NCBI GenBank assembly: GCA_964384085.1
Contig: CAYLJZ010000007.1
Span: 3,340 to 67,339, forward strand
Reading direction: 5' to 3'
DNA: 64,000 nt
Origin: an uncultured Desulfobacteraceae bacterium
GTDB taxonomy: Bacteria > Desulfobacterota > DSM-4660 > Desulfatiglandales > Desulfatiglandaceae
The notes under the pieces were generated by a model. The model made no database searches and had not been told where the DNA came from. It saw nothing but the letters and a program-made list of their open reading frames with translations. Position 1 is the first letter of the stretch, and every line of letters begins with the position of its first letter. Positions 31,218-64,000 of the stretch are shown here, piece after piece. Both the position numbers and the translations under genes were made by a program.

Positions 31218-33047
31218 CTAATGAGAATCGCTTAATGTCTCCGTCGTTTCAGGTTGAGTGTCATCTGGCAGGCAAGAGGTTTTATCAAGCCTTTCCCTGT
31301 GCCACTGAGCCGAGGGTTTGAGCAGTCTTCCTTGCTCTTCCTGGCTCAAAAGGCGCATCCCCTTGACTGCCGGGGGCGACGGGACCGTGAGGACCGTATC
31401 TATCGTCAGCTCGTCCTGGATTCCGAGACCGGCGACCAGGCGGTTCATGTGACAGGCCGTACAGGCACGTCCGAACGGAGCGATGGTATGGGGCACATAG
31501 GGCATGAAGGTCCAGCCCTTTCCGGAGCCGTCGCCCCTTTCGGGGGCCACGCTGTCTAGGGGAACTTTCCCTTCCCGATCCACATGGGTGACGAGATACT
31601 GGTAAAGGGGGCGCAGGATGGCGTATCTGCCAGCGGGGTCCACGCCCAGAGGCATGGGTTCCCACGGCCTGAAGCGCCATCCCATAGACCAGATCCCTTC
31701 CCTTTGAAGGCCAGACAGATAATCGACAGACATCGGATAGGCTGTCTTCGGGCTGTCGGCACAGACCTTCAATTTCTCCTGAAGCCAGGGGTCCCCCTGG
31801 AGGGTGAGATCCCGCCACTTGTAGTCGTGGATCCGGTCTTCGCGCATGACGCTCATGCCATAGTCCTGAAACGACCACTGGGCATGACAGGCGCTGCACC
31901 GGACCCTGGCGTGGGCCTTGATCCGGTGACCGGCTGTCTCCGGGCCGAATTGGGGCAGCCGGTGTTTTTTTCTGCCGTCCCTCGAGACAAAAACGAGACC
32001 AACGGAGTCCTTCTGGATCGACGGCCCTGTCATATCCGGGGCCTTTCCGTCAAATCCGCCGTGACAGTCACTGCACGACCGTTTCGGGACCTCCATCTGA
32101 AAGCCGTAAACGCGACCGTCTCCCATGACATCTCTCCGGCTGTGACAGTCGATGCACCAGAGGCCCTTTTCCGCGTGAATATCCCTGGCGAGTCGGTGAT
32201 GATCCAGACCGTAGAGCTTCGGCCCGAGACCTCCATTTATCATGGGCGATCGGTACACATCGCTCGTGTCATGCTGGAACAGCCCCTCGTAATCGGCTCC
32301 CACATGGTTGTTGTTGTGGCAGTGAAGGCACTGAAGGTTCGGGATCCTGATGGTAAATGCGTGCCTCGCAGGGTACCCCGTCCTGGAGCGATCAATAGCC
32401 CGGTCTCCCCCTTCGTAACGGCCCTCGTTAGTGTACAGCACATGACAAGCGGCACAGCCGGTCGACCTGTAGAGCCCAGGGCCCTTCGGGCCTTTGCCGT
32501 GGACATGGCACCTGAGACACCGCCTTCTCAAAAAATCATCCACCAGCATGGCCGGGGTTTCCGCATGGATTTCCGGTTGAGGCGTCGGCAATGGCTGAAG
32601 GGGTCCGCTTAGCCCATAAGTGGCTGGGGCCGCCGCCGCCTGTGCGCCCCAGAGGTATCGTGTCTGGTTGATGATTCCAGCCATGGTGGAATGAAGAGAA
32701 TGGCGAACCTCCCTGATTTCAGTTTCGTGGCATGCCCCGCAGAAGGCATCTACCTGTTCGAGAGCGGAAGGATTTCGCACGATTTTTTCATGGCTCGTGA
32801 GGGAGTTGGAGTTGGCCTTTCTGTCCTTCGGCAGGAGGTGACAGTCGGCGCATGGAAAGGGATGACGGGCGCTAATGGATTCGATCCCCTGATGACATGC
32901 CAGACAGTCGGCATAGTTGATCTTTTCCGAGGCCAGGGCGCGGATGGCCATCAGTCCGATACAGACAAGGATCCCCACGGCCAAAAGGAGGCGGGCATCC
33001 GTGACAATCCTGACAGGCGCACGCTGAGGCCTCCTCACTTCAGGCAT
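31218..33047 (-). CDS. Multihaem c-type cytochrome, 10 CxxCH motifs, N-terminal membrane anchor or signal
   Basis: I counted CLACH, CADCH, CGACH, CLRCH, CAACH, CLHCH, CIDCH, CSDCH, CSACH and CTACH. 609 aa. Paralogous to the upstream gene. Confidence 0.85.
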   Translation of the reverse strand: MPEVRRPQRAPVRIVTDARLLLAVGILVCIGLMAIRALASEKINYADCLACHQGIESISARHPFPCADCHLLPKDRKANSNSLTSHEKIVRNPSALEQVDAFCGACHETEIREVRHSLHSTMAGIINQTRYLWGAQAAAAPATYGLSGPLQPLPTPQPEIHAETPAMLVDDFLRRRCLRCHVHGKGPKGPGLYRSTGCAACHVLYTNEGRYEGGDRAIDRSRTGYPARHAFTIRIPNLQCLHCHNNNHVGADYEGLFQHDTSDVYRSPMINGGLGPKLYGLDHHRLARDIHAEKGLWCIDCHSRRDVMGDGRVYGFQMEVPKRSCSDCHGGFDGKAPDMTGPSIQKDSVGLVFVSRDGRKKHRLPQFGPETAGHRIKAHARVRCSACHAQWSFQDYGMSVMREDRIHDYKWRDLTLQGDPWLQEKLKVCADSPKTAYPMSVDYLSGLQREGIWSMGWRFRPWEPMPLGVDPAGRYAILRPLYQYLVTHVDREGKVPLDSVAPERGDGSGKGWTFMPYVPHTIAPFGRACTACHMNRLVAGLGIQDELTIDTVLTVPSPPAVKGMRLLSQEEQGRLLKPSAQWHRERLDKTSCLPDDTQPETTETLSDSH

Positions 33048-34864
33048 GGCAGTCCGGCCTCCCTTTCGAATCGCTTCCTGGACTCCTGAAAGTTTAGGTA
33101 AATCGGGTCATCATATCCCGTGTGACATCCGAGGCAGGGGGCTACCCCGAGGATACGGTCAATTTCCTCTCTCGTAAAGGGCCGCACACCGTTCTTAAAC
33201 CCTGTCTGAAGGGGTTCCCCATCCAGGTTCACATAGGCGTCTAAAGGATGCGAAAGCCCAAGGCCTGAGCCAGCGGCATCATAGGTCGGCCTGAAGTTGC
33301 GTCTCCCCTCTTTCTGATGCAAAATACCCTCTCCCAGTCCGATGACCTTGGGGTCTTCGTGGCAGTCGATGCAGGCCCTTGATGTTGCGGCAGTTGTATG
33401 AGGATCAAATGCCGACAGGTTCATGACGCTGAAGGATCGCCCCTTCCGGTATTCATCTGATTCGTCAAAGACAGAGACAAACATCTGGCATGGAGAAAGG
33501 GTAACGACCTTACTGTCATCTCTGATGCCCAGGGAGGGCCTTGAAAAACGAATATAGGAACGGGCCTCTTTCCATCTGCCGGGCGATGTTTCCCTGGTCA
33601 GCCAGTCTCTCTGCTGCTCCGACTCCCTGTATGTCAGGTGACACCCGTAACACTGGGGTATCCATGCGGTGTGACATGCCTGGCAAGTAAGACGTTCATG
33701 TCCCCTCAGACGATGGTGGGGCTTCTCCGCCGCCGGCACAGTCATTTCAATGGGCAACCCATCCATCTTTCGATAAAAAATGACCTTCCCGTCCTCCTTC
33801 CGCAGGTTATAGACGGGGGTCCCCTTTTTGGTGAGGCCCACCGATTTTCCGACAGCGCCGGGTACCCGTCTGTTGAGGGAGGTCAGTCGCATTGCCAGAG
33901 AGTCATTCGTCTCAACCGGCGAAAACCTGGGGGCATGACACGCCTGACAGGTGATATCGATCTGATCTTTCATCTGATCATAGGCCTGCCCATCCCCCAT
34001 CAGCCCGGTGGCCGTATGACAGTCGATGCATTCCATCCCGAGCTTTCTGAAGTGGACATCTCCCTGAAGGTCCATAAAAAAACGATTCCCGGACAGCCTC
34101 CTTCGGTTCAGCCCGCTCCCTTCATAAGGCGTCCCGTAGCCATCGGATTCGAACCTGCCGAAGTAAGAAAGGCCGATCCTCGCAGACCGGTTGTGGCACT
34201 TGGTGCAGTTATCGGATGGAATCCTCGTTGTCATGACGGGATGTTGAATCATTCTGGACTCTTGATCTTTTCTTTTCTTTTCATCCAGGACGTGACAATC
34301 GCTGCACCCACCTCCCCGTCTGGCCACTTCCCCCCTTCCGCTCCCCCTTGGCTTCCAGAGATGGCATCCTCCACACAATTTTCGATAATGGTCTATGGCA
34401 AGGTTCTGAGGGGGGTTTTCTTTGTAGAGGTCGCTGACATGCACGCCTCTGACCAGCGCATCTTGGCCATTCGCGCCACTCGGTCGAAGCCATTGCTCCT
34501 GAAGGATTCTGATCATCCCGCTGTTCGTGGCCATAACGCTCTTTTTCACCCGGTCCGCCATATCCGGATGACAGCCGAATTTCCCGCAGGTCTTGTCCAC
34601 GATGCGCAGATCGCCCGGATTTTGAACCATGCTGAAATGGGCCCTTTCACGGTCCAATGAATACCTGTTTCCCAGGTGGCAGACAGCGCATCCAAAGGCC
34701 GAAACAGGGTGGGACGGATCCGGATCTTTCATCGCGTCGTGACAGCCGAGACAGCCGTCCTTCGCCGCTCCCGAACGTCGCTCGATGCCTTCCTCCTTAA
34801 GGACCAGCAAAATCCCTATCAGGCAAATTGAAATCAGCGCGAGGGCTTTTTTCATCGATTTCAA
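33035..34864 (-). CDS. Multihaem c-type cytochrome, 11 CxxCH plus one CxxxxCH motif
   Basis: I counted CLGCH, CAVCH, CGKFGCH, CGGCH, CSDCH, CTKCH, CIDCH, CQACH x2, CYGCH, CIDCH and CLGCH. Signal or anchor MKKALALISICLIGILLVL. 609 aa. Confidence 0.85.
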   Translation of the reverse strand: MKSMKKALALISICLIGILLVLKEEGIERRSGAAKDGCLGCHDAMKDPDPSHPVSAFGCAVCHLGNRYSLDRERAHFSMVQNPGDLRIVDKTCGKFGCHPDMADRVKKSVMATNSGMIRILQEQWLRPSGANGQDALVRGVHVSDLYKENPPQNLAIDHYRKLCGGCHLWKPRGSGRGEVARRGGGCSDCHVLDEKKRKDQESRMIQHPVMTTRIPSDNCTKCHNRSARIGLSYFGRFESDGYGTPYEGSGLNRRRLSGNRFFMDLQGDVHFRKLGMECIDCHTATGLMGDGQAYDQMKDQIDITCQACHAPRFSPVETNDSLAMRLTSLNRRVPGAVGKSVGLTKKGTPVYNLRKEDGKVIFYRKMDGLPIEMTVPAAEKPHHRLRGHERLTCQACHTAWIPQCYGCHLTYRESEQQRDWLTRETSPGRWKEARSYIRFSRPSLGIRDDSKVVTLSPCQMFVSVFDESDEYRKGRSFSVMNLSAFDPHTTAATSRACIDCHEDPKVIGLGEGILHQKEGRRNFRPTYDAAGSGLGLSHPLDAYVNLDGEPLQTGFKNGVRPFTREEIDRILGVAPCLGCHTGYDDPIYLNFQESRKRFEREAGLPCLK

Positions 34865-40324: not shown

Positions 40325-40598
40325 AGACAACGCGCACTGGACCAGGGGAAAAGAGGTCGGGCCGGCAAGGCTATTTTATCGGTTGCAAAATGGCTATAAT
40401 GTAGTTACAATCCGATCATGAACGCCAGGCTGTATAATTTCAATACGGAAGGGCCCTTACGGCTGAATTCCTTTTCCGAACTTCAGTCGTCAGCCGTTTC
40501 ACCCTGCCGATACAGGCGGGAAAATCGATGTATTGTTGGCCCGATTTATGGACAGCATACGCCCGGTTTGTGGAATTCCAAACGCAAGGAGATATCTC

Positions 40599-43500
40599 AT
40601 GTCTGACGGTGTAACGGGAGCTGTTGTGGTCGCAGGCGCGGGAATTGCCGGCATGCAATGCGCCCTTGATCTGGCCAGCTCCGGATATTACGTGTACCTT
40701 CTCGAAAAAGGGCCCGCAATCGGGGGGGCCATGGCCCGGCTGGATAAAACCTTTCCCACCAATGATTGTGCCATGTGAATCCTCTCTCCCAAGCTGGTCG
40801 AGGTCGACCGGCACCTGAATATCGAACTGATCACACTGGCAGACATTGCCGCCATCCACGGCGAGGCCGGAGATTTTGAGATAGAGGTTCTGAGACATCC
40901 GCGTTATGTCGACATGGACCGGTGTATTGCATGCGGAACCTGCTCCGAAAAATGTCCGAAAAAGGTGGATGACCTCTTCAACGGGAATCTCATTCAGCGC
41001 AAGGCCATCTATGTGGAATATCCCCAGGCGGTCCCGCTTAAATATGTCATTGACCAAGACAACTGCATCTTCTTCCAAAAGGGGAAATGCCGGGCCTGCG
41101 AAAAATTCTGCCCCACAAAGGCCATTCGCTTTGATGAAAAGGAGGAACGACGGACCATTCGAGCGGGCGCCCTTATCCTCGCCCCTGGATTCAAGCCATA
41201 CGACCCTAGCCCTTATAAGACCTACGCCTACAGCAGATATCCCAATGTCGTTACGAGCGTGGAGTTTGAACGGATCCTGAGTGCCACCGGACCGTATCAG
41301 GGGCATCTCCAACGGCCCTCCGATGGAAAATTGCCTAAAAAAATCGCATGGCTCCAGTGCGTCGGATCGAGGGACGTCAACCAGTGCGATCATGCGTATT
41401 GCTCATCCGTCTGCTGCATGTACGCCATCAAGGAGGCGGTCATCGCAAAAGAACATGCAGGGGAGGGTCTGGACTGCGCTATTTTTTACATGGACATGCG
41501 GACCCATGGAAAGGATTTCGAGCGCTACTACACGAATGCCAGAGAAAAGCATGGCGTCCGTTTCATACGGTCGCGCGTCCCTACGGTTGATGCCCTGAAA
41601 GACTCGGGCGACCTTCTGATCCCCTATGTCAACGAGGCCGGAGAGGTGGTGGAAGAGACCTTTGACATGGTCGTCCTTTCTGTGGGGATGGAGACCTCGT
41701 CCGAATCGCTGGAACTGGCGCACCAACTCGGCATCGAGCTGACCGAGGGAGGGTTCTGCAAGACAGAATCGTTTCATCCGGTAGCCTCATCCAAACCCGG
41801 GATTTATGTGTGCGGGGCATTTCAAGGGCCCAAGGATATTCCCCAATCCATCATTGAAGCCAGTTCTGCAGCCGCAGAGGCAGGCGCCCGCTTGAGCCCG
41901 GCAAGGAACACCCTGACAAAACATATGGAGGTTCCGGAAGAAAAACAGATCGCTGGAGAAAGGCCCCGCATCGGCGTATTTGTCTGCCACTGCGGCATCA
42001 ATATCGGAGGAGTGGTGGATGTCCCCGGAGTGAGGGATTACGCCAGATCTCTTCCCTACGTGGAATATGCGACCGACAATCTATTTACCTGTTCTACAGA
42101 TACCCAGCAGATCATCGCCCAGATTATCAAAGATAAAGGCCTCAACCGCGTGGTGGTGGCCGCCTGCACGCCCAAGACCCATGAGCCGCTGTTTCAGGAA
42201 ACATTGGTCGATGCAGGGCTGAACAAATACCTCTTTGAAATGACCAATATTCGAAACCAGGACTCCTGGGTTCATAAGGATTCTCCCCAATTGGCGACCG
42301 AGAAGGCCAAGGACCTTGTCCGCATGGCCGTTGCCAAGGCCGCCCTGATGGAGCCCCTGGCGGAAACCGAACTGGGAATCAGCCAAAAGGCCCTTGTTGT
42401 CGGAGGGGGGATCTCTGGAATGGCGGCGGCAAAAAGCCTTTCAGACCAGGGGTTTCCGGTCTGTTTGGTGGAACGGTCGTGTTCGCTGGGCGGTCAGGCC
42501 CTCAACCTTTTCAGGACCTGGAAGGGAGAGGACATTCAGAAGAATCTGTCTGAGTTGGTTGACTCCGTTCAGAATGACCCGCATATCGAGGTGCGCCTCG
42601 AGACAGAGCTGGGCGATGTGGAAGGGTTTGTGGGAAATTTCAGGACCCGGCTTGTCTCAAAGGGGAAAGATTCTCTGATTGAGCACGGCGTTGTCGTGCT
42701 GGCTACCGGCGCAAGGGAATCGAGGCCTCGCGAATACCTGTATGGAGAGGATGCAAGGGTGCTCACCCATCTCGAGCTGGATCGAAAGATGATTGGAGGC
42801 GACCCGGCCCTGCGAGAGGTTCGGACCGCCGTTTTTATCCAGTGCGTGGGGTCCCGGGAGCCTGAACGGCCCTATTGCTCCAGGGTTTGCTGCAGCCATT
42901 CCATCGAAAGTGCACTCCACCTGAAAGCGTTGAATCCCGACATGAAGGTCTATGTCCTCTACCGGGATATCCGTACCTATGGGGAACGGGAGCGTCTCTA
43001 TCGGGATGCCCGCCTGGCGGGGGTCCTGTTCATTCCATTCTCGGTGGATCACAAGCCGCGGGTCTTCCCGGACAAGAACCGTCTCAGAATTGAGGTAGAG
43101 GACACGGCGTTGGGTGAAACGGTCACGTTCGGCGCCGACCTGGTGGTGCTGGCAGCCGCCATTGTCCCTTATGAAGACGAGAAACTGGCACAATTGTTCA
43201 AGGTACCTATGAACGAAGACGGGTTTTTTGTTGAGGCCCACGCCAAATTGGGACCATCGGAGTTCGCCACCGACGGGGTATTTCTCTGCGGCATGAGTCA
43301 TTATCCCAAACCGATAGATGAATCCGTTGCACAGGCACTGGCCGCCTCTTCCCGGGCCGTGACGCTCCTGTCCAAAAAATCCGTTCGAATGACCGGAACA
43401 GTGGCCCATGTGGACCCCCGCGCGTGCAGCGGGTGTGGCGTGTGTGCGACCATCTGTCCCTATTCAGCCCCTGCGGTCATCACGACGGGGCCCTTTGCAG

Positions 43501-43628
43501 GCAAGATGGAAATCAATCCTGCCCTATGCAAGGGATGCGGCTTGTGTGTAGCCTCGTGTCGTTCGGGCGCGCTGAACCTCAAGGGCTTTGGCGAAGATCA
43601 AATCATAGCCATGATTAATGAGATATAA
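40599..43628 (+). CDS. hdrA: Heterodisulfide reductase subunit A-like flavoprotein, tandem-module form, with in-frame TGA (selenocysteine) at 40776..40778
   Basis: ORFs 40533..40778 and 40914..43628 share a frame with no other stop between them. The junction reads FPTNDCAM-[TGA]-ILSPKLVE, a conserved HdrA Cys position. Two GxGxxG FAD modules ([11 protein letters not shown] and [10 protein letters not shown]) and several CxxCxxCxxxCP ferredoxin motifs. SD AAGGAGA before the ATG at 40599. Confidence 0.85.
40793..40812 (+). promoter_or_regulatory. Candidate bacterial SECIS hairpin for hdrA (8-bp stem GCUGGUCG/CGACCGGC, apical loop AGGU)
   Basis: Starts 15 nt after the UGA. All 8 pairs are Watson-Crick or GU. 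The loop contains GGU-like bases. Confidence 0.5.
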
Positions 43629-43773: not shown

Positions 43774-44277
43774 ATGGGAACCATAGACCTGGATCGGAGC
43801 GATTCGAAGTTTATAGAGGATCTGGCCGGACAGCCCGGAGGAGAGATGATACGGGCCTGTTTCACCTGTCGCAGTTGCGTGGCAGGCTGTCCGATCGCCG
43901 CGGTCAACCGGGAGTTCAGCCCAGCCAAAATCATTCGAATGGCCCTTTATGGACTCAAAGATCACGTCCTGAAAAGCGATTTCGTATGGCTGTGTTCCAC
44001 CTGCTATACCTGTCAGGAGAGATGCCCCCAGGGGGTAACCATCACAGATTTTATGACCCTCCTGAAAAACAGGGCGATCAAGGAAGGATTCGCGCCCCCC
44101 GGGATCCGGGCCCAGTTGAAACTGGTCACCGGCGATGGCCGGATCTATCCGATCGATGATTTTGACAACAAAAAGCGGTCAAAGGCAGGGCTACCAGTGT
44201 TGCCGACCTCATGCGAGGAGATCAAGAAGTTATTTCACGGACAGGATGCCGCTACAGATACGGATATCCCGGTTTGA
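43774..44277 (+). CDS. hdrC: Heterodisulfide reductase subunit C-like (2x[4Fe-4S])
   Basis: Contains the CFTCRSCVAGCP and CSTCYTCQERCP cluster motifs. 167 aa. Confidence 0.85.
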   Translation: MGTIDLDRSDSKFIEDLAGQPGGEMIRACFTCRSCVAGCPIAAVNREFSPAKIIRMALYGLKDHVLKSDFVWLCSTCYTCQERCPQGVTITDFMTLLKNRAIKEGFAPPGIRAQLKLVTGDGRIYPIDDFDNKKRSKAGLPVLPTSCEEIKKLFHGQDAATDTDIPV

Positions 44278-44342
44278 CCTTTCATCGTACTGAAAAGGAC
44301 GCTACGGCGTGTTCAGTTAACCAAACCTCAAGGAACCGACGA

Positions 44343-45218
44343 ATGAAATACGCATTTTTTTTGGGCTGTACCATTCCCGCCAGGGCCAGAAATTATGAGC
44401 TTTCTGCGAGAAAGGTGGCCGAGACGGTAGGGATCGACCTGATAGAGACAGACAGGTTTATGTGCTGCGGATTTCCCATAAAGGCAGCGGACAGGGATGC
44501 TGCAACGCTCATGGCCGCTTACAATCTCGCTCTGGCCCAGGAGAAAGGCCTGGATATATGCTCCCTGTGCAGCTCTTGTGCCTCTCAACTGGCTGAGTCC
44601 GCACATCATTTGTCGTGGGACGAGGATGAAAGGGCCCGCGTCAATGAGCGACTGTCCGCAGTGGGTCTGACATATAATAAAGGCCCAAGGGTCAGGCATT
44701 TTGCCCGTATCCTGTTTGAAGAAGTGGGGGCCGAAACCATCAAGACCCATTTAAAAAAGGACCTGACGGGCCTCAACATCGCCGTTCACTACGGTTGCCA
44801 TTACCTCAAGCCCTCTTCCATCCACGATCATTTCGACGATGTGGAAGACCCTGAATCCATTGAAGATCTGGTAGCCCTCACCGGGGCTAAGATAGTTGAT
44901 TACCCGGGAAAGAAGATGTGCTGCGGCGGCCCCGTGCTTCCTGTGGATGAAAAGCTGGCCCTCTCTGTCACGAAAAAGAAGCTGGATACCCTTGTGGAGG
45001 CCAAGGCAGATGCGCTGTGCCTCGTTTGCCCCTTCTGCTCGGTCATGTACGACGGAAACCAGAAGAGTATTGAATCGGAATTCGGCGTGACCTATAACCT
45101 TCCGGTCCTCTACCTGACCCAGGTCCTGGGTCTGGCCATGGGCTTTGACACAAAAGAATTAGGGTTAACTATGAATGTGGTGAAGACCAAGGAATTGGCC
45201 GCCAGGATAGGGCTTTAG
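44343..45218 (+). CDS. hdrB: Heterodisulfide reductase subunit B-like (two CCG domains)
   Basis: MKYAFFLGCTIP..., CCGFP and CCGGP CCG-domain motifs. Start at the ATG at 44343 rather than the ORF-track 44211. Confidence 0.9.
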   Translation: MKYAFFLGCTIPARARNYELSARKVAETVGIDLIETDRFMCCGFPIKAADRDAATLMAAYNLALAQEKGLDICSLCSSCASQLAESAHHLSWDEDERARVNERLSAVGLTYNKGPRVRHFARILFEEVGAETIKTHLKKDLTGLNIAVHYGCHYLKPSSIHDHFDDVEDPESIEDLVALTGAKIVDYPGKKMCCGGPVLPVDEKLALSVTKKKLDTLVEAKADALCLVCPFCSVMYDGNQKSIESEFGVTYNLPVLYLTQVLGLAMGFDTKELGLTMNVVKTKELAARIGL

Positions 45219-59627: not shown

Positions 59628-59793
59628 GCCGGCATTTTCGAACCTATGTCAACCGGAGACGCCTGGAACATGATGCGTTGGAGTTTTCATGCAGCATGAT
59701 TCGTAGGTTGAAGGGAGATGGCTCATCATATTGTCGACCCTTCATATTGTCGACAAATTAATCTTTAACGGAGTTGGAAGAAAGGAGGATAAC

Positions 59794-60588
59794 GTGAACA
59801 TTATTGTTTGTCTGAAACAGGTGCCGGATACAGAGACCCAGATCAAGATCGGATCGGACCGCCAGTCCATTGTGACCGATGACATCAAATGGGTCATGAA
59901 TCCCTATGATGAATATGGCGTAGAGGAGGCCTTGCGCCTGAAGGAAAAGCATGGGGGCGAGGTCACCGTGGTGGGGCTCGGTCCGAAAAGGGTCACCGAG
60001 TCTATACGCACCGCCCTGGCCATGGGCGCGGACAAGGGGATTCTCATCAGCGACGAAGCCCTGAATGGAAGTGATTCGCTTGCCCATGCAAAGGCACTCG
60101 TTGCGGCCATCAAAGACACTGAATACGATCTGATCTTCACCGGGCAGCGGGGCGTAGATGACGATTTGGGCATTGTCGGCGCTACCCTCGCGGAGCTGTT
60201 GAACATTCCACAGCTTTCACTGATTATCAAGGTGGAAGTGGCGGAGGACGGTAAGTCGGTCAAGGTGGAACGGCCAATTGAGGGGGAGACTCTGGTCATC
60301 ACATCCCCGCTCCCGGCCCTGATCACTGCTCAGAAGGGTCTGAACGAACCTCGATACGCCTCATTGCCCGGAATTATGAAGGCAAAGAAAAAGCCACTTG
60401 TAGAAAAGTCCCTTGCAGATCTTGGGCTGAACGTTGCCGATTTTGGAGCTGGCGCGAGAAAAATGAAAATTCTGGAGCTGACTCCGCCTCCCGGCAGGCA
60501 GGCAGGCAAGATTATCGAAGGGGAGACGCCGCAGGAAAAGGCCGCACAATTGGCGAAGTTGCTCCACGAGGAGGCAAAGGTTCTCTAA
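59794..60588 (+). CDS. etfB: Electron transfer flavoprotein beta subunit
   Basis: The sequence (V)NIIVCLKQVPDTETQIKIG...NPYDEYGVEEALRLKE is typical of EtfB. The GTG at 59794 is preceded by AAAGGAGG. Confidence 0.9.
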   Translation: MNIIVCLKQVPDTETQIKIGSDRQSIVTDDIKWVMNPYDEYGVEEALRLKEKHGGEVTVVGLGPKRVTESIRTALAMGADKGILISDEALNGSDSLAHAKALVAAIKDTEYDLIFTGQRGVDDDLGIVGATLAELLNIPQLSLIIKVEVAEDGKSVKVERPIEGETLVITSPLPALITAQKGLNEPRYASLPGIMKAKKKPLVEKSLADLGLNVADFGAGARKMKILELTPPPGRQAGKIIEGETPQEKAAQLAKLLHEEAKVL

Positions 60589-60664
60589 AGCTTGAGCCGG
60601 CGTGATATCGCACTGGCGCTAAATTTGAGCATGAAATCAATACAGAACAGGTAAGGAGATAAAA

Positions 60665-61648
60665 ATGGCACAGGGAGTTTGGACAATTGCTGAGCAAAGG
60701 GACGGAAAAATCCGTAAAATTACTTACGAACTCGTCAGTGAAGGGAGGCGTCTGGCCGATGCCTTGGGTCAGGAACTGACAGTGGTGCTGCTCGGCTCCA
60801 ATGTCAAAGACAAGGCTGCGGAATTCGGCCCTTATGGAGCGGACAAGGTCCTGGTGGCTGACGATTCAAGACTCGAACCCTACACCACCGATGCGTATGT
60901 CTCCGTTATCTCGCAGTTGGTGAAGGCCAACGAACCGGGCATACTCCTTTTGGGCGCATCTGTTGAGGGAAAGGATCTGGCCGGCAGATTGGCTGCCAGA
61001 TTGGATGTGGCCATGGCGCAGGACTGCACAGCCTTTGCCATTGAGAACGGGAGCCTTGTGGCGACCCGCCCCATCTATGCAGGCAAAGCGTATGCGAAGG
61101 TGACATTTGAAAACAGCTGGCCCCAGATGGCTACTGCCAGGCCAAAGGTAATGAGCGTCAGGGAGCCCGATCCTTCCAAATCTGCGGAGGTGATAGATGC
61201 GGCTTTCACATTGAACGATGCGGACCTCAAGACAAAGGTCGTCAATGTGGTCAAGGATGAAAGCGGCAAGGTTGACCTGACCGAGGCAGACAAGATCGTC
61301 TCGGGGGGCCGTGGCATGAAAGGACCTGAAAATTACACTATCTTAGAAGCGTTAGCCGATGTGATCGGCGCCAGCGTGGGGGCTTCGCGTTCGGCCGTGG
61401 ACGCGGGCTGGCGGCCCCATGCAGATCAGGTGGGACAGACAGGGAAGGTGGTGTCGCCAAACCTCTATGTGGCGTGCGGGATTTCAGGGGCGATTCAGCA
61501 CCTGGCGGGAATGAGCACCTCAAAGGTCATTGTCGCCATCAATAAAGATGCGGATGCCCCCATCTTTCAGAAGGCCGACTATGGGGTGGTCGGCGATCTC
61601 TTTGATGTGGTTCCGGCCTTGACAGAAGAGGTTAAGAAGTACGTGTAA
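60665..61648 (+). CDS. etfA: Electron transfer flavoprotein alpha subunit
   Basis: Contains the FAD-binding region IVSGGRGM...VGQTGKVVSPNLYVACGISGAIQHLAGM. Confidence 0.9.
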   Translation: MAQGVWTIAEQRDGKIRKITYELVSEGRRLADALGQELTVVLLGSNVKDKAAEFGPYGADKVLVADDSRLEPYTTDAYVSVISQLVKANEPGILLLGASVEGKDLAGRLAARLDVAMAQDCTAFAIENGSLVATRPIYAGKAYAKVTFENSWPQMATARPKVMSVREPDPSKSAEVIDAAFTLNDADLKTKVVNVVKDESGKVDLTEADKIVSGGRGMKGPENYTILEALADVIGASVGASRSAVDAGWRPHADQVGQTGKVVSPNLYVACGISGAIQHLAGMSTSKVIVAINKDADAPIFQKADYGVVGDLFDVVPALTEEVKKYV

Positions 61649-61658
61649 AGAGGAGTTT

Positions 61659-61687
61659 GGGGATTGAGGGCATTGCCCTCAATCCCC
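61659..61687 (+). terminator. Perfect 13-bp hairpin after etfA (GGGGATTGAGGGC-att-GCCCTCAATCCCC); no U-run
   Basis: Read directly, 10 nt after the etfA stop. It lacks a T tract, so its terminator function is uncertain. Confidence 0.35.
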
Positions 61688-61748
61688 CCATCCCGTATCC
61701 CGTTTAATTCCCTTCAAGCGCCGATGTGAACCCGCTGGCATTATTTGG

Positions 61749-61776
61749 TTGACAAAAAACAAAATTTCGATAAATT
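61749..61776 (+). promoter_or_regulatory. Candidate sigma70 promoter for the tRNA (TTGACA-16 nt-TAAATT)
   Basis: Read directly. The -10 box ends 20 nt before tRNA position 1. Confidence 0.5.
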
Positions 61777-61796
61777 ACCAAGTCTGAAAAACAGAC

Positions 61797-61873
61797 GGCG
61801 GTGTAGCTCAGTTGGTCAGAGCATACGGCTCATATCCGTAGAGTCACTGGTTCAAATCCAGTCACCGCCACCA
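61797..61873 (+). tRNA. tRNA with anticodon CAT: elongator tRNA-Met (or lysidine-modified tRNA-Ile2), CCA encoded
   Basis: Cloverleaf folded by hand. Acceptor GGCGGTG/CACCGCC, D arm GCTC..GAGC, anticodon stem TACGG/CCGTA with loop CTCATAT, T arm ACTGG-TTCAAAT-CCAGT. The paired 1-72 position argues against an initiator. Confidence 0.9.
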
Positions 61874-61900
61874 ATAAAAATCCCGATCAGATATTGACAA

Positions 61901-62518
61901 ATGCCGGGTCGGCCTTATTTTCTGCCAGAATTATACCCAATTCACGAGCCTTTTAAGATGGCCTCTTTCAGGCAGAATGAACTCATTACGGTAAGCGATG
62001 CCCTCGACATTGCAGAGGACGCGACAGGGAATTTCTTCAAGACGTCGATCGCGCAATCTAACAGGTATGGGTATGATGTGAAGACCCTTTCCTCTCTGAA
62101 CCAGGGGGAAATCAGTAATTTTGCCCTTGCAGTTCTAAGCAAGGGGATGAGGGTATTGAACGATTTTGAACCCAGAACCAAAACGCGTGATTTTTATTTC
62201 ATCTGCCTCCAAGACCATCTCATTCTGAAGGCGCTCAGAAGGGATAGAGATCTGGCGCTTCTGCCGTTTTTGGTGTATATCTTCACCCACGAACTGGTTC
62301 ATATCGTCAGATTCTGTAAGTTTTTTCAGAGATTCGATGTGACGGATAGAGAGCGGGCCGAGGAAGAGGAGGTCGTGCACTCGCTGACCTTTGACATATT
62401 GAAAAAATTTTCCCTGGCCCAACTGGATTATGTTCTGGATTCTTACCAGGGCCACAGGATCTGTCAAATCAGGAGTGACATGAAGGAGGAAAATAGGAAT
62501 GCCGATTTACGAATATGA
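61901..62518 (+). CDS. Hypothetical protein with an HExxH motif (FTHELVHIV), a possible small metallopeptidase-like protein
   Basis: ORF with a single HExxH and no family recognised. The start is uncertain (ATG at 61901 or 61958; neither has a good SD). Confidence 0.45.
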   Translation: MPGRPYFLPELYPIHEPFKMASFRQNELITVSDALDIAEDATGNFFKTSIAQSNRYGYDVKTLSSLNQGEISNFALAVLSKGMRVLNDFEPRTKTRDFYFICLQDHLILKALRRDRDLALLPFLVYIFTHELVHIVRFCKFFQRFDVTDRERAEEEEVVHSLTFDILKKFSLAQLDYVLDSYQGHRICQIRSDMKEENRNADLRI

Positions 62519-62807
62519 ATGTGACGCATGCGGACGTCATATGGAAGTCTTGCAAAAATTTTCAGATCCGCCGCTTACTGAGTGTGAGGCGTGCCATTCT
62601 GGCAAAGTCAAGAGGGTCATCTCTCAAAGTACCTTTCACCTGAAAGGGAGTGGTTGGTACGTCACTGACTATGCTTCCAAGTCCGGCTCCACCTGCAGCA
62701 GGGGCGCTGAAAAGGGTTCTGACGGGGGCAAAAAATCAGACGTCCCATCTTCCACAGACAACAAACACAAGAAGGAAGTCCCGGTGACTTCCAACGCCAA
62801 GGAATAG
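62499..62807 (+). CDS. FmdB-family zinc-ribbon protein (CxxC_CxxC_SSSS type)
   Basis: MPIYEYECDACGRHMEVLQKFSDPPLTECEACHSGKVKRVIS is the canonical FmdB-family N-terminus. Confidence 0.8.
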   Translation: MPIYEYECDACGRHMEVLQKFSDPPLTECEACHSGKVKRVISQSTFHLKGSGWYVTDYASKSGSTCSRGAEKGSDGGKKSDVPSSTDNKHKKEVPVTSNAKE

Positions 62808-62823
62808 GCCGAAAAGGTTTTCC

Positions 62824-63369
62824 ATGTACACACGAGATTCCGGAAGGGTCCAGGATAAATTGATTAATAAACTTGAGAGGCAGGAAAAGCAGAGGGCCTT
62901 TCAGCAGGGACGGTTTTTCAGATTTAAGCTCCCAGAAATTCACAACAAGCTGCGTCAGACACTCCTGGAGGAAAAGATTATTGAAACCGACAATGCGGCG
63001 GCTGTTTCCGATTCTATCCTCAAAGGTCTGAAAATGGCGCTCAACAGCTCCGAATTCGATTTCAAATATTTTGTTTCACCCATCCGCGATCTCGTCCCGC
63101 ATCCGAATCCCTATTCTCTGTATATGACCCAGTATTTGATGGAGGTCCTTATCAATGATCCGGACGTGATCGAGATATACGGCACAGATGAGGACATCTA
63201 CCACTCCATCGACCGAATTGTCACACAGAGCCGTAACCAATTCGAGAAGGTGGAAAAGGACATTTTGGACCAGTTGGCCCAGAAAAAGACGCTGACGCCC
63301 GGGTCTGCCGAGTACAAAATCGCCATGGACCAGCTTCTCCGAGAAAAGCTGGGGGAACCGCAAAAATAG
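62824..63369 (+). CDS. Hypothetical protein (181 aa, helical, charged)
   Basis: Clean ORF. No family recognised with confidence. Confidence 0.5.
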   Translation: MYTRDSGRVQDKLINKLERQEKQRAFQQGRFFRFKLPEIHNKLRQTLLEEKIIETDNAAAVSDSILKGLKMALNSSEFDFKYFVSPIRDLVPHPNPYSLYMTQYLMEVLINDPDVIEIYGTDEDIYHSIDRIVTQSRNQFEKVEKDILDQLAQKKTLTPGSAEYKIAMDQLLREKLGEPQK

Positions 63370-63518
63370 TAGGCGAGGATCGCTAAGTGGGCGCGCAACA
63401 ATAAGCTGACCAGTTTTAGCTGTTTGGTGCTGTAGTATAATGGTTTGAGTTCTGTCATATTCATGATAGCGTATATCGCACAAACCCCAAATGTGGTCAT
63501 GTTATTTCTGCGCGACTC

Positions 63519-63995
63519 CTAAGAATCCGCCTCATAGTCCAAAAGATACCGCTTCACATCAAGCCCGCTTCCAAAACCGCCGAGGCCCCCGGCAGCCACC
63601 ACGCGATGTCACGGAAAAAGCAATGGAAAGGGATTTCTCCTCATGACCTGACCGACGGCCCTGGCGGCCAATGGTTTTCCCATCATTGAAGCGACCGCCC
63701 CATACGTCCGCGTATGGCCAAAGGGTATGGTCGCGATGGCCTTCAATACGGCCCATTGAAACGGGCTGAATGAGACATCCATGGAGAGGGCTTTTTCTGC
63801 AGGCGTATTTCGCAAGGCCGCCTCCACGGCCTCGGCAAGGTGTTGATTCAGACGGTCGTTCTCGCTAAGATTTGCCGTCGGAAAGAGACGCCTGAAAAAG
63901 TGTACGGGATGGCTCGACCGGTTCAGCTCCAACCCGATTCGAAACGCCCCTTTCCGTGTAGATGCCAGATAGACCGTCAGACGGCCCACTTTCAT
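63519..63995 (-). CDS. ogt: Methylated-DNA--protein-cysteine methyltransferase (Ogt/MGMT) with TGA at the active-site Cys codon (candidate selenocysteine; alternatively a nonsense pseudogene)
   Basis: The reverse frame reads ...FSPFQWAVLKAIATIPFGHTRTYGAVA...AVGQVMRRNPFPLLFP-[TGA 63609..63611]-HRVVAAGGLGGFGSGLDVKRYLLDYEADS-TAG (63519..63521). The flanks match the family signature NPxxxxxPCHRV...G.LGG...K..LL..E. Confidence 0.75.
63576..63596 (-). promoter_or_regulatory. Candidate SECIS-like hairpin downstream of the ogt UGA (stem GCUGCCG/CGGCGGU, loop GGGGCCU)
   Basis: Starts 12 nt after the UGA. 7 bp including two GU pairs. Hand-folded only. Confidence 0.35.
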
Positions 63996-64000
63996 TTTCG

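Follow-up and report, generated by a model that had tools for sequence, protein, structure and literature searches.

A UGA at the catalytic cysteine codon of a Desulfobacterota O6-alkylguanine-DNA alkyltransferase gene is probably read as selenocysteine

On the minus strand of the window (the whole stretch of 64,000 nucleotides analysed here), near its right-hand end, a gene of the MGMT/Ogt alkyltransferase family is interrupted by TGA at the codon for the alkyl-acceptor cysteine, the residue on which the activity of the protein would depend. The question raised by this locus is whether that TGA ends the protein, is an error or a recent mutation, or is decoded, and, if decoded, whether as selenocysteine (Sec). 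The minus-strand frame runs ...GQVMRRNPFPLLFP, TGA (63611..63609), HRVVAAGGLGGFGSGLDVKRYLLDYEADS and TAG (63521..63519), with RRNPFPLLFP as the last residues before the TGA and 29 sense codons after it. Both elements of the original prediction, a TGA at the catalytic-Cys codon and an open tail of 29 codons up to the TAG, are therefore present in this frame. A full length of 158 aa had also been proposed, and this has to be revised. Relatives at 91-96% identity start earlier, carrying MAGKTFPDIYCSK ahead of MKVG, and hence the full protein has 171 aa (141 + U + 29) and the gene runs off the window. With the sequence past position 64000 inferred from a 96%-identical contig (L006) and from other orthologs, the start codon appears to lie ~39 nt beyond that position, and the ATG at 63995 would be the internal Met14. 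The features of the locus, with the evidence for each in parentheses, are as follows.

63612..64000, minus strand: 5' part of the alkyltransferase coding sequence, residues 13-141 of 171 aa, cut by the window edge
63609..63611, minus strand: UGA at the catalytic alkyl-acceptor position (P-U-H-R-V), probably read as selenocysteine (14 orthologous DNA sequences with TGA)
63575..63597, minus strand: candidate bacterial SECIS hairpin, optional G-U pair included (fold, conservation, bSECIS criteria)
63522..63608, minus strand: 29 post-Sec codons, with the His and Arg of PCHR, the GGLGGF loop and the K..LL..E helix with its conserved Glu (alignment, pN/pS)
63519..63521, minus strand: true stop codon TAG (frame)

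When U is read as C, residues 78-156 match the MGMT DNA-binding/active-site domain PF01035 with E=8e-29 and 99.7 bits (cutoff 27); the match spans profile positions 1-80 of 81 and crosses the TGA. With the ogt model TIGR00589 the score is 89.5 bits (cutoff 46.4). M. tuberculosis OGT aligns with residues 80-168 of the window protein (E=4e-21), with the UGA opposite its active-site Cys. This alignment bears out the claim that every motif residue of an alkyltransferase except the acceptor Cys is in place: the Tyr of TRTYG, the Arg finger of ARAVG, the N-P hinge within RRNPFP, P-U-HRV, and KRYLLDYE with the C-terminal Glu are all kept. In a Pfam scan the N-terminal half gave no match to PF02870. 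An AlphaFold model of a Cys-form member of the clade (P0015, 59% identical) was used as a stand-in for the window protein; it has a pLDDT of 92.2 and a pTM of 0.86, and the two-domain fold, an N-terminal alpha/beta domain and a C-terminal helix-turn-helix domain, is found in it. In Foldseek comparisons the model matched E. coli Ada-C (1sfe; TM 0.79/0.83, rmsd 2.4 A, 167 columns) and M. tuberculosis OGT (4wxc; TM 0.73/0.76), and it also superimposes on the Sulfolobus and human alkyltransferases over both domains. As the model fits in both domains, the N-terminal half, though missed by Pfam, is likely to be canonical as well. Judged from its motifs, profiles and the modelled fold, the gene very probably encodes a two-domain O6-alkylguanine-DNA alkyltransferase of the MGMT/Ogt family with Sec for the catalytic Cys, and DNA, rather than another nucleic acid, is its predicted substrate.

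The gene neighbourhood bears on this assignment of function. Directly upstream of the alkyltransferase is a radical-SAM gene of the MnmL/YtqA type, with ~20-65 nt of overlap between its 3' end and the start of the alkyltransferase. This overlap is present in every clade member with upstream DNA, in Sec and Cys forms alike, and an MnmL-type neighbour was found at 0 of ~65 other MGMT loci. The encoded protein scores 363 bits with the TIGR01212 equivalog (cutoff 180) and matches PF04055 and PF16199. At the window locus the gene would lie past position 64000, judging from the clade loci in which it is found:

L006, 1-570: MnmL/YtqA-type gene
L008, 1515-2504: MnmL/YtqA-type gene
L091, 5114-6043: MnmL/YtqA-type gene
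L093, 5114-6064: MnmL/YtqA-type gene
L086-L088, L094 and L095: MnmL/YtqA-type gene also present

An alternative is that the clade alkyltransferase is a functional partner of the MnmL/YtqA tRNA-modification enzyme and not a stand-alone DNA repair protein. It could, for example, be a Sec or Cys alkyl acceptor with alkylated tRNA, or the xnm5U intermediates of the tRNA wobble uridine, as its substrate, in which case the choice of Sec would reflect the chemistry of the MnmL pathway. We consider such a partnership improbable. Two papers on MnmL/YhcC were searched for an alkyltransferase linkage and no mention of it was found. The invariant overlap is an unexplained linkage that could be pursued.

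Whether the TGA is peculiar to this contig was examined among relatives of the predicted alkyltransferase. A search covered ~5.8 billion proteins, and the best 120 clusters were inspected. More than 50 of these 120 clusters are 141 aa long, with exactly 81% query coverage, and end in ...NP[LF]P[LI]x[FY]P; they stop at the residue directly before the catalytic position, while a smaller set with the same N-terminus goes on with P-C-H-R-V. Clustered at 90% identity, the clade contains at least 54 clusters stopped at the Sec residue and 11 Cys clusters, and the source names of the relatives are Thermodesulfobacteriota, Desulfobacterales and Desulfobacteraceae. At the DNA level, 22 distinct clade sequences were available from metagenome and genome loci, and the catalytic codon is TGA in 14 of them, TGC in 6 and TGT in 2; over all the MGMT loci retrieved there were 53 TGC, 15 TGT and 13 TGA codons, plus locus L001 with TGA. 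The TGA sequences stem from independent metagenomes and MAGs, and all 14 (48-96% protein identity) have an intact in-frame tail of 27-51 codons with the pattern HRVVAAGG[LP]GGF...K.[YL]LL..E.

Gene order shows that these TGA-bearing relatives are orthologs. Locus L091 (61% identity) has the order of window positions 59731..63995, with the MnmL-type radical-SAM gene followed by MGMT and, on the opposite strand, genes for DUF507, a Zn-ribbon protein, a hypothetical protein, EtfA and EtfB; L093 (48%) and L094 keep the proximal part of this order (MnmL to MGMT, DUF507, Zn-ribbon, hypothetical) up to the end of the locus. Within the same region of the window, a tRNA-Met gene (61797..61873, plus strand) lies between etfA and a 205-aa ORF (61901..62518, plus strand), for which no Pfam or NCBIfam match was found; L091 and L093 have an ORF of 174-176 aa at the same position, with no recorded Pfam match. 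A reassignment of TGA throughout the genome was also considered and is ruled out. TGA is the ordinary stop codon of 8 of the 24 Pfam-supported genes in the window, which indicates the standard genetic code.

The conservation of the tail is the evidence against a true stop. In the 14 Sec forms, the 25 codons that follow the UGA and the 50 that precede it have nearly equal pN/pS (0.275 and 0.280, respectively). The Sec frame is open in 14 of 14 sequences, and stops occur in both of the other frames of the tail. An open tail whose pN/pS equals that of the preceding part must be translated, and translation of the tail excludes a pseudogene, a sequencing error or a truncated main product. The tabulation of TGA against TGC and TGT among relatives that had been proposed as a check thus finds TGA to be other than sporadic, with intact tails under purifying selection equal to that upstream. 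The earlier argument that Sec recoding is likelier than a random nonsense mutation is strengthened accordingly by the occurrence of TGA with an undecayed tail in 14 orthologous sequences.

Were the TGA nevertheless a true stop, the product would be a protein of 141 aa lacking the nucleophile, the His, the Arg and the Glu, possibly acting as a non-catalytic damage sensor in the manner of the ATL proteins, and the downstream frame would be untranslated. Sec insertion is never fully efficient, so that some truncated product is to be expected. Gene callers and GenBank do annotate products of 126-141 aa, and ATL proteins are real non-catalytic relatives, one of which (3gva) is among the structure matches. 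However, the tail described above holds every catalytic residue, and a protein without it is predicted to lose the C-terminal helix of the fold. ATL proteins, moreover, are not truncated; they keep the full domain and have Trp or Ala at the site. An ATL-like truncated sensor is rejected because of the conservation of the tail, and we regard a true stop at this codon as very improbable.

If the UGA is decoded as Sec, a SECIS element is expected downstream of it. On the minus strand, the 5' arm GCUGCCGGG (63596..63588), the loop GGC (63587..63585) and the 3' arm CUCGGCGGU (63584..63576) form a hairpin that begins 12 nt after the UGA, with a possible additional G-U pair (63597/63575); the hairpin predicted for 63576..63596 is present as placed. 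All four features of the published bSECIS criteria are found in it: a 3-nt loop starting with GG, a stem of 9-10 bp, a UGA-to-loop distance of 21 nt and an energy of about -14 kcal/mol. Folded on their own, the 72 nt that follow the UGA yield the hairpin, with a stability no greater than that of GC-matched dinucleotide shuffles (z = 0.03). The proposed folding of the minus strand therefore gave a divided answer, in that the hairpin forms and satisfies the bSECIS model but on its own does no better than shuffled sequence, and it gains significance only when relatives are compared. No Rfam SECIS model had a match: searches of the window at the gathering threshold and of the surroundings of the site at E<=10 returned only tRNA-Met and noise.

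This comparison separates the Sec from the Cys forms. The apical loop is GGN in all Sec forms. Core pairs number 7-9 of 9 in the 14 Sec forms and 5-9 of 9 in the 8 Cys forms (Mann-Whitney p=0.008, kinship ignored); hairpin energies are -12.4 to -18.3 kcal/mol in the 14 Sec forms as against -4.8 kcal/mol in the Cys form with five pairs. The stem is also coding sequence, Ala-Ala-Gly being encoded by the 5' arm and Leu/Pro-Gly-Gly by the 3' arm, and each wobble position in the stem faces a fixed first or second codon position. The wobble sites of the arms are pairing-competent in 75 of 84 cases in Sec forms versus 34 of 48 in Cys forms (Fisher p=0.009, kinship ignored). Synonymous resampling, in which the peptide was fixed and codons were drawn by window codon usage in 5000 rounds, gave an expectation of 5.92 pairs for the Sec forms, compared with an observed mean of 8.36 of 9, and 0 of 5000 resamplings were as high. 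Similarly, the stem is 92% paired in register but only 30-56% paired after a shift of the partner strand by 1-3 nt. The Cys forms of the clade also exceed expectation, with 7.0 pairs versus 5.5, and part of the signal must therefore be due to shared ancestry or peptide constraint; the excess pairing of these Cys forms points to a SECIS relic or to common descent. No double-sided compensatory changes were found at any of the 9 pairs among 13 Sec-form sequences, in which the columns are near-invariant and the column-shuffle control is uninformative. Hence, the RNA evidence consists of conservation and of the contrast between Sec and Cys forms.

The window contains a second gene of this kind, as had been claimed, with a TGA at the classical CxxU site of hdrA. 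Its features are as follows.

40776..40778, plus strand: Sec-UGA of the hdrA-like gene, CxxU motif (C-A-M-U), in the context ...PTNDCAM-U-ILSPK
40793..40812, plus strand: hairpin after the hdrA UGA, a candidate SECIS with an 8-bp stem and an AGGU loop, 14 nt after the UGA (single-sequence fold, z = -0.48)

The gene (40467..43628, plus strand) encodes an HdrA-like flavoprotein/Fe-S protein of ~1050 aa that ORF callers would split, and a CCG-domain (HdrB-like) gene comes after it at 44211..45218. The GOS survey lists HdrA with CxxU among the selenoprotein families, and the Desulfobacterota lineage is described as selenoprotein-rich in the Olavius symbiont selenoproteome study. The Sec-UGA of hdrA thus supports Sec decoding by the organism. 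Elsewhere in the window, two adjacent 609-aa proteins with multihaem cytochrome c7/c3-type domains (31218..34864, minus strand) fit a Desulfobacterota-like anaerobe. ARAGORN found no tRNA-Sec in the 64-kb window, and none of the 20 larger window ORFs matched SelA, SelB or SelD in a Pfam scan, small ORFs being covered less than exhaustively.

It is also conceivable that the UGA is read through by some means other than the Sec machinery, by a near-cognate Cys or Trp tRNA or a suppressor tRNA, giving a full-length protein with Cys or another substitute at the site. The tail is clearly translated, as this explanation requires, and the tRNA scan and the 20 larger ORFs of the window revealed no Sec machinery. 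Sec-independent read-through would not, however, account for a SECIS-type hairpin whose conservation at the canonical distance is specific to the TGA forms, several Cys forms having a degraded one. It also fits poorly with the TGA at the Sec site of a classical selenoprotein, HdrA, in the same window, with the use of TGA as a normal stop by a third of the window genes, and with the selenoprotein-rich character described for Desulfobacterota, and we consider it about as improbable as a true stop. That a TGC or TGT codon became TGA by a recent nonsense mutation (giving a pseudogene) or through an error of sequencing or assembly has a probability close to nil: TGA is one nucleotide from either and a close relative (L089) has TGT, but 14 distinct sequences, obtained from independent metagenomes and MAGs and as low as 48% in protein identity, share the TGA, more than 50 of the best 120 protein clusters end at the same residue, and the tail is free of decay.

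The gene is thus very likely to be a genuine selenoprotein gene, a reading that draws on comparison of sequences. Of the conditions named beforehand as refuting it, those examined here, sporadic TGA with decayed tails and the lack of a hairpin at the right distance, came out on the side of Sec. In the mechanism that we propose, the hairpin 12 nt after the UGA, made by the Ala-Ala-Gly and Leu-Gly-Gly codons, would recruit SelB with Sec-tRNA(Sec), and the UGA at 63609..63611 would be decoded as Sec. The ribosome would then go on for 29 codons to the TAG, and the tail would supply the active-site His, Arg and Glu. The product would flip the alkylated base into its pocket, and the alkyl group of O6-alkylguanine would be moved irreversibly to the selenolate in a single turnover.

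Selenocysteine-containing alkyltransferases have been described before. CHY0809, a Sec form of methylated-DNA-protein-cysteine methyltransferase, was reported from Carboxydothermus hydrogenoformans in 2005, identified by Sec/Cys homology and with a stem-loop after its UGA; it was described there as the sole such case. The Olavius symbiont selenoproteome contains two Sec-MGMT sequences, the GOS survey lists one Sec sequence against 2,879 Cys sequences, and the family appears in reviews of 2022 and 2026. The doubt originally expressed about novelty, and the suggestion that MGMT-like sequences appear in metagenomic selenoproteome lists, were well placed, as Sec-MGMT has been catalogued since 2005, including in the GOS survey. 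A selenol as the alkyl acceptor, which had been called biochemically unusual, is workable in an engineered protein: Haruna et al. (2014; PMC4150793) showed that human AGT C145U gives an E. coli ada ogt mutant protection against MNNG in vivo, and that an N137A variant of human AGT is active only with Sec. Since both the kind of gene and the selenolate chemistry are known, the window gene represents a further member of a known family.

The window gene shares features with each of these systems and differs from each. Like CHY0809, it has TGA for the active-site Cys of an MGMT/Ogt protein and a stem-loop directly downstream of the UGA; CHY0809, compared here by its description, is from a Firmicute and was presented as a unique recent invention, whereas the clade of the window gene has a Sec majority and a conserved MnmL partner. 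With the Cys alkyltransferases (E. coli Ada-C and Ogt, M. tuberculosis OGT and human AGT/MGMT) the window protein appears, from the model, to have the two-domain fold in common, as well as the motifs IPxGxTxxYG, the ARAVG Arg finger, the NP hinge, P-[C/U]-H-R-V and K..LL..E. It differs from them in having Sec for Cys and an N-terminal half that PF02870 does not match. It also has a one-residue deletion after PCHRV (VVAA-GGLGGF, compared with VIGASGKLTGF in M. tuberculosis OGT), which falls exactly at the site that codes for the hairpin. In the engineered hAGT-U145 (PMC4150793), the selenolate is a stoichiometric alkyl acceptor, as is proposed for the window gene, but insertion there is artificial, UAG- and EF-Tu-dependent and SECIS-free, in contrast to a UGA with an in-frame candidate SECIS. 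ATL proteins resemble the window protein in their C-terminal DNA-binding domain (3gva is a weak match) and in the absence of a Cys nucleophile. Their site is a sense codon for Trp or Ala, and they have no N-terminal domain and perform no alkyl transfer, whereas the window gene has a conserved UGA with a candidate SECIS and two domains.

Exchange between Sec and Cys is evident within the clade and possibly outside it. A close syntenic ortholog (L089:227-229, protein P0025; 82% identical) has TGT for Cys, the same convergent DUF507 neighbour and a perfect 9/9 SECIS-type stem. It indicates Sec/Cys interchange at the catalytic codon and looks like a very recent switch from Sec to Cys (or from Cys to Sec) with the hairpin intact. 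A pair of Nitrospinaceae MAGs, with 95% identity across the 194 nt aligned around the site, have TGA (L004:3157-3159) and TGC (L003:3125-3127), respectively; a perfect 7-bp hairpin (CAAGUUC-UGGA-GAACUUG) lies ~15 nt downstream of the UGA in the TGA form, and in the TGC form it has one mismatch. This pair, of two sequences only, may represent a second, independent Sec-MGMT lineage without an MnmL neighbour, or an error.

In a rough NJ tree of the clade, the Cys forms make up 3-4 groups, some of them nested among the Sec forms, which are in the majority by the cluster counts given above. Within this Desulfobacterota clade, Sec is thus the majority state and has long been maintained, and Cys seems to have been regained several times, a picture that contrasts with the recent, isolated invention originally seen in CHY0809. 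The additions made here to a known family are modest: the clade-wide Sec majority, the truncated database entries, the MnmL overlap and the possible second Sec lineage in Nitrospinaceae. As to the database entries, MDQ1335441.1, MBN2034701.1, MBC8417778.1 and MFH1629564.1 (clusters P0016, P0064 and P0048) are annotated as methylated-DNA-protein-cysteine methyltransferases of 126-141 aa but are cut at the Sec codon and so have no active site. Dozens of Thermodesulfobacteriota and Desulfobacterales entries of this length in GenBank and IMG are better read as selenoproteins of 170 aa. With Sec as its prevailing state, the clade offers a natural system for asking why a protein with a single turnover would pay for selenium.
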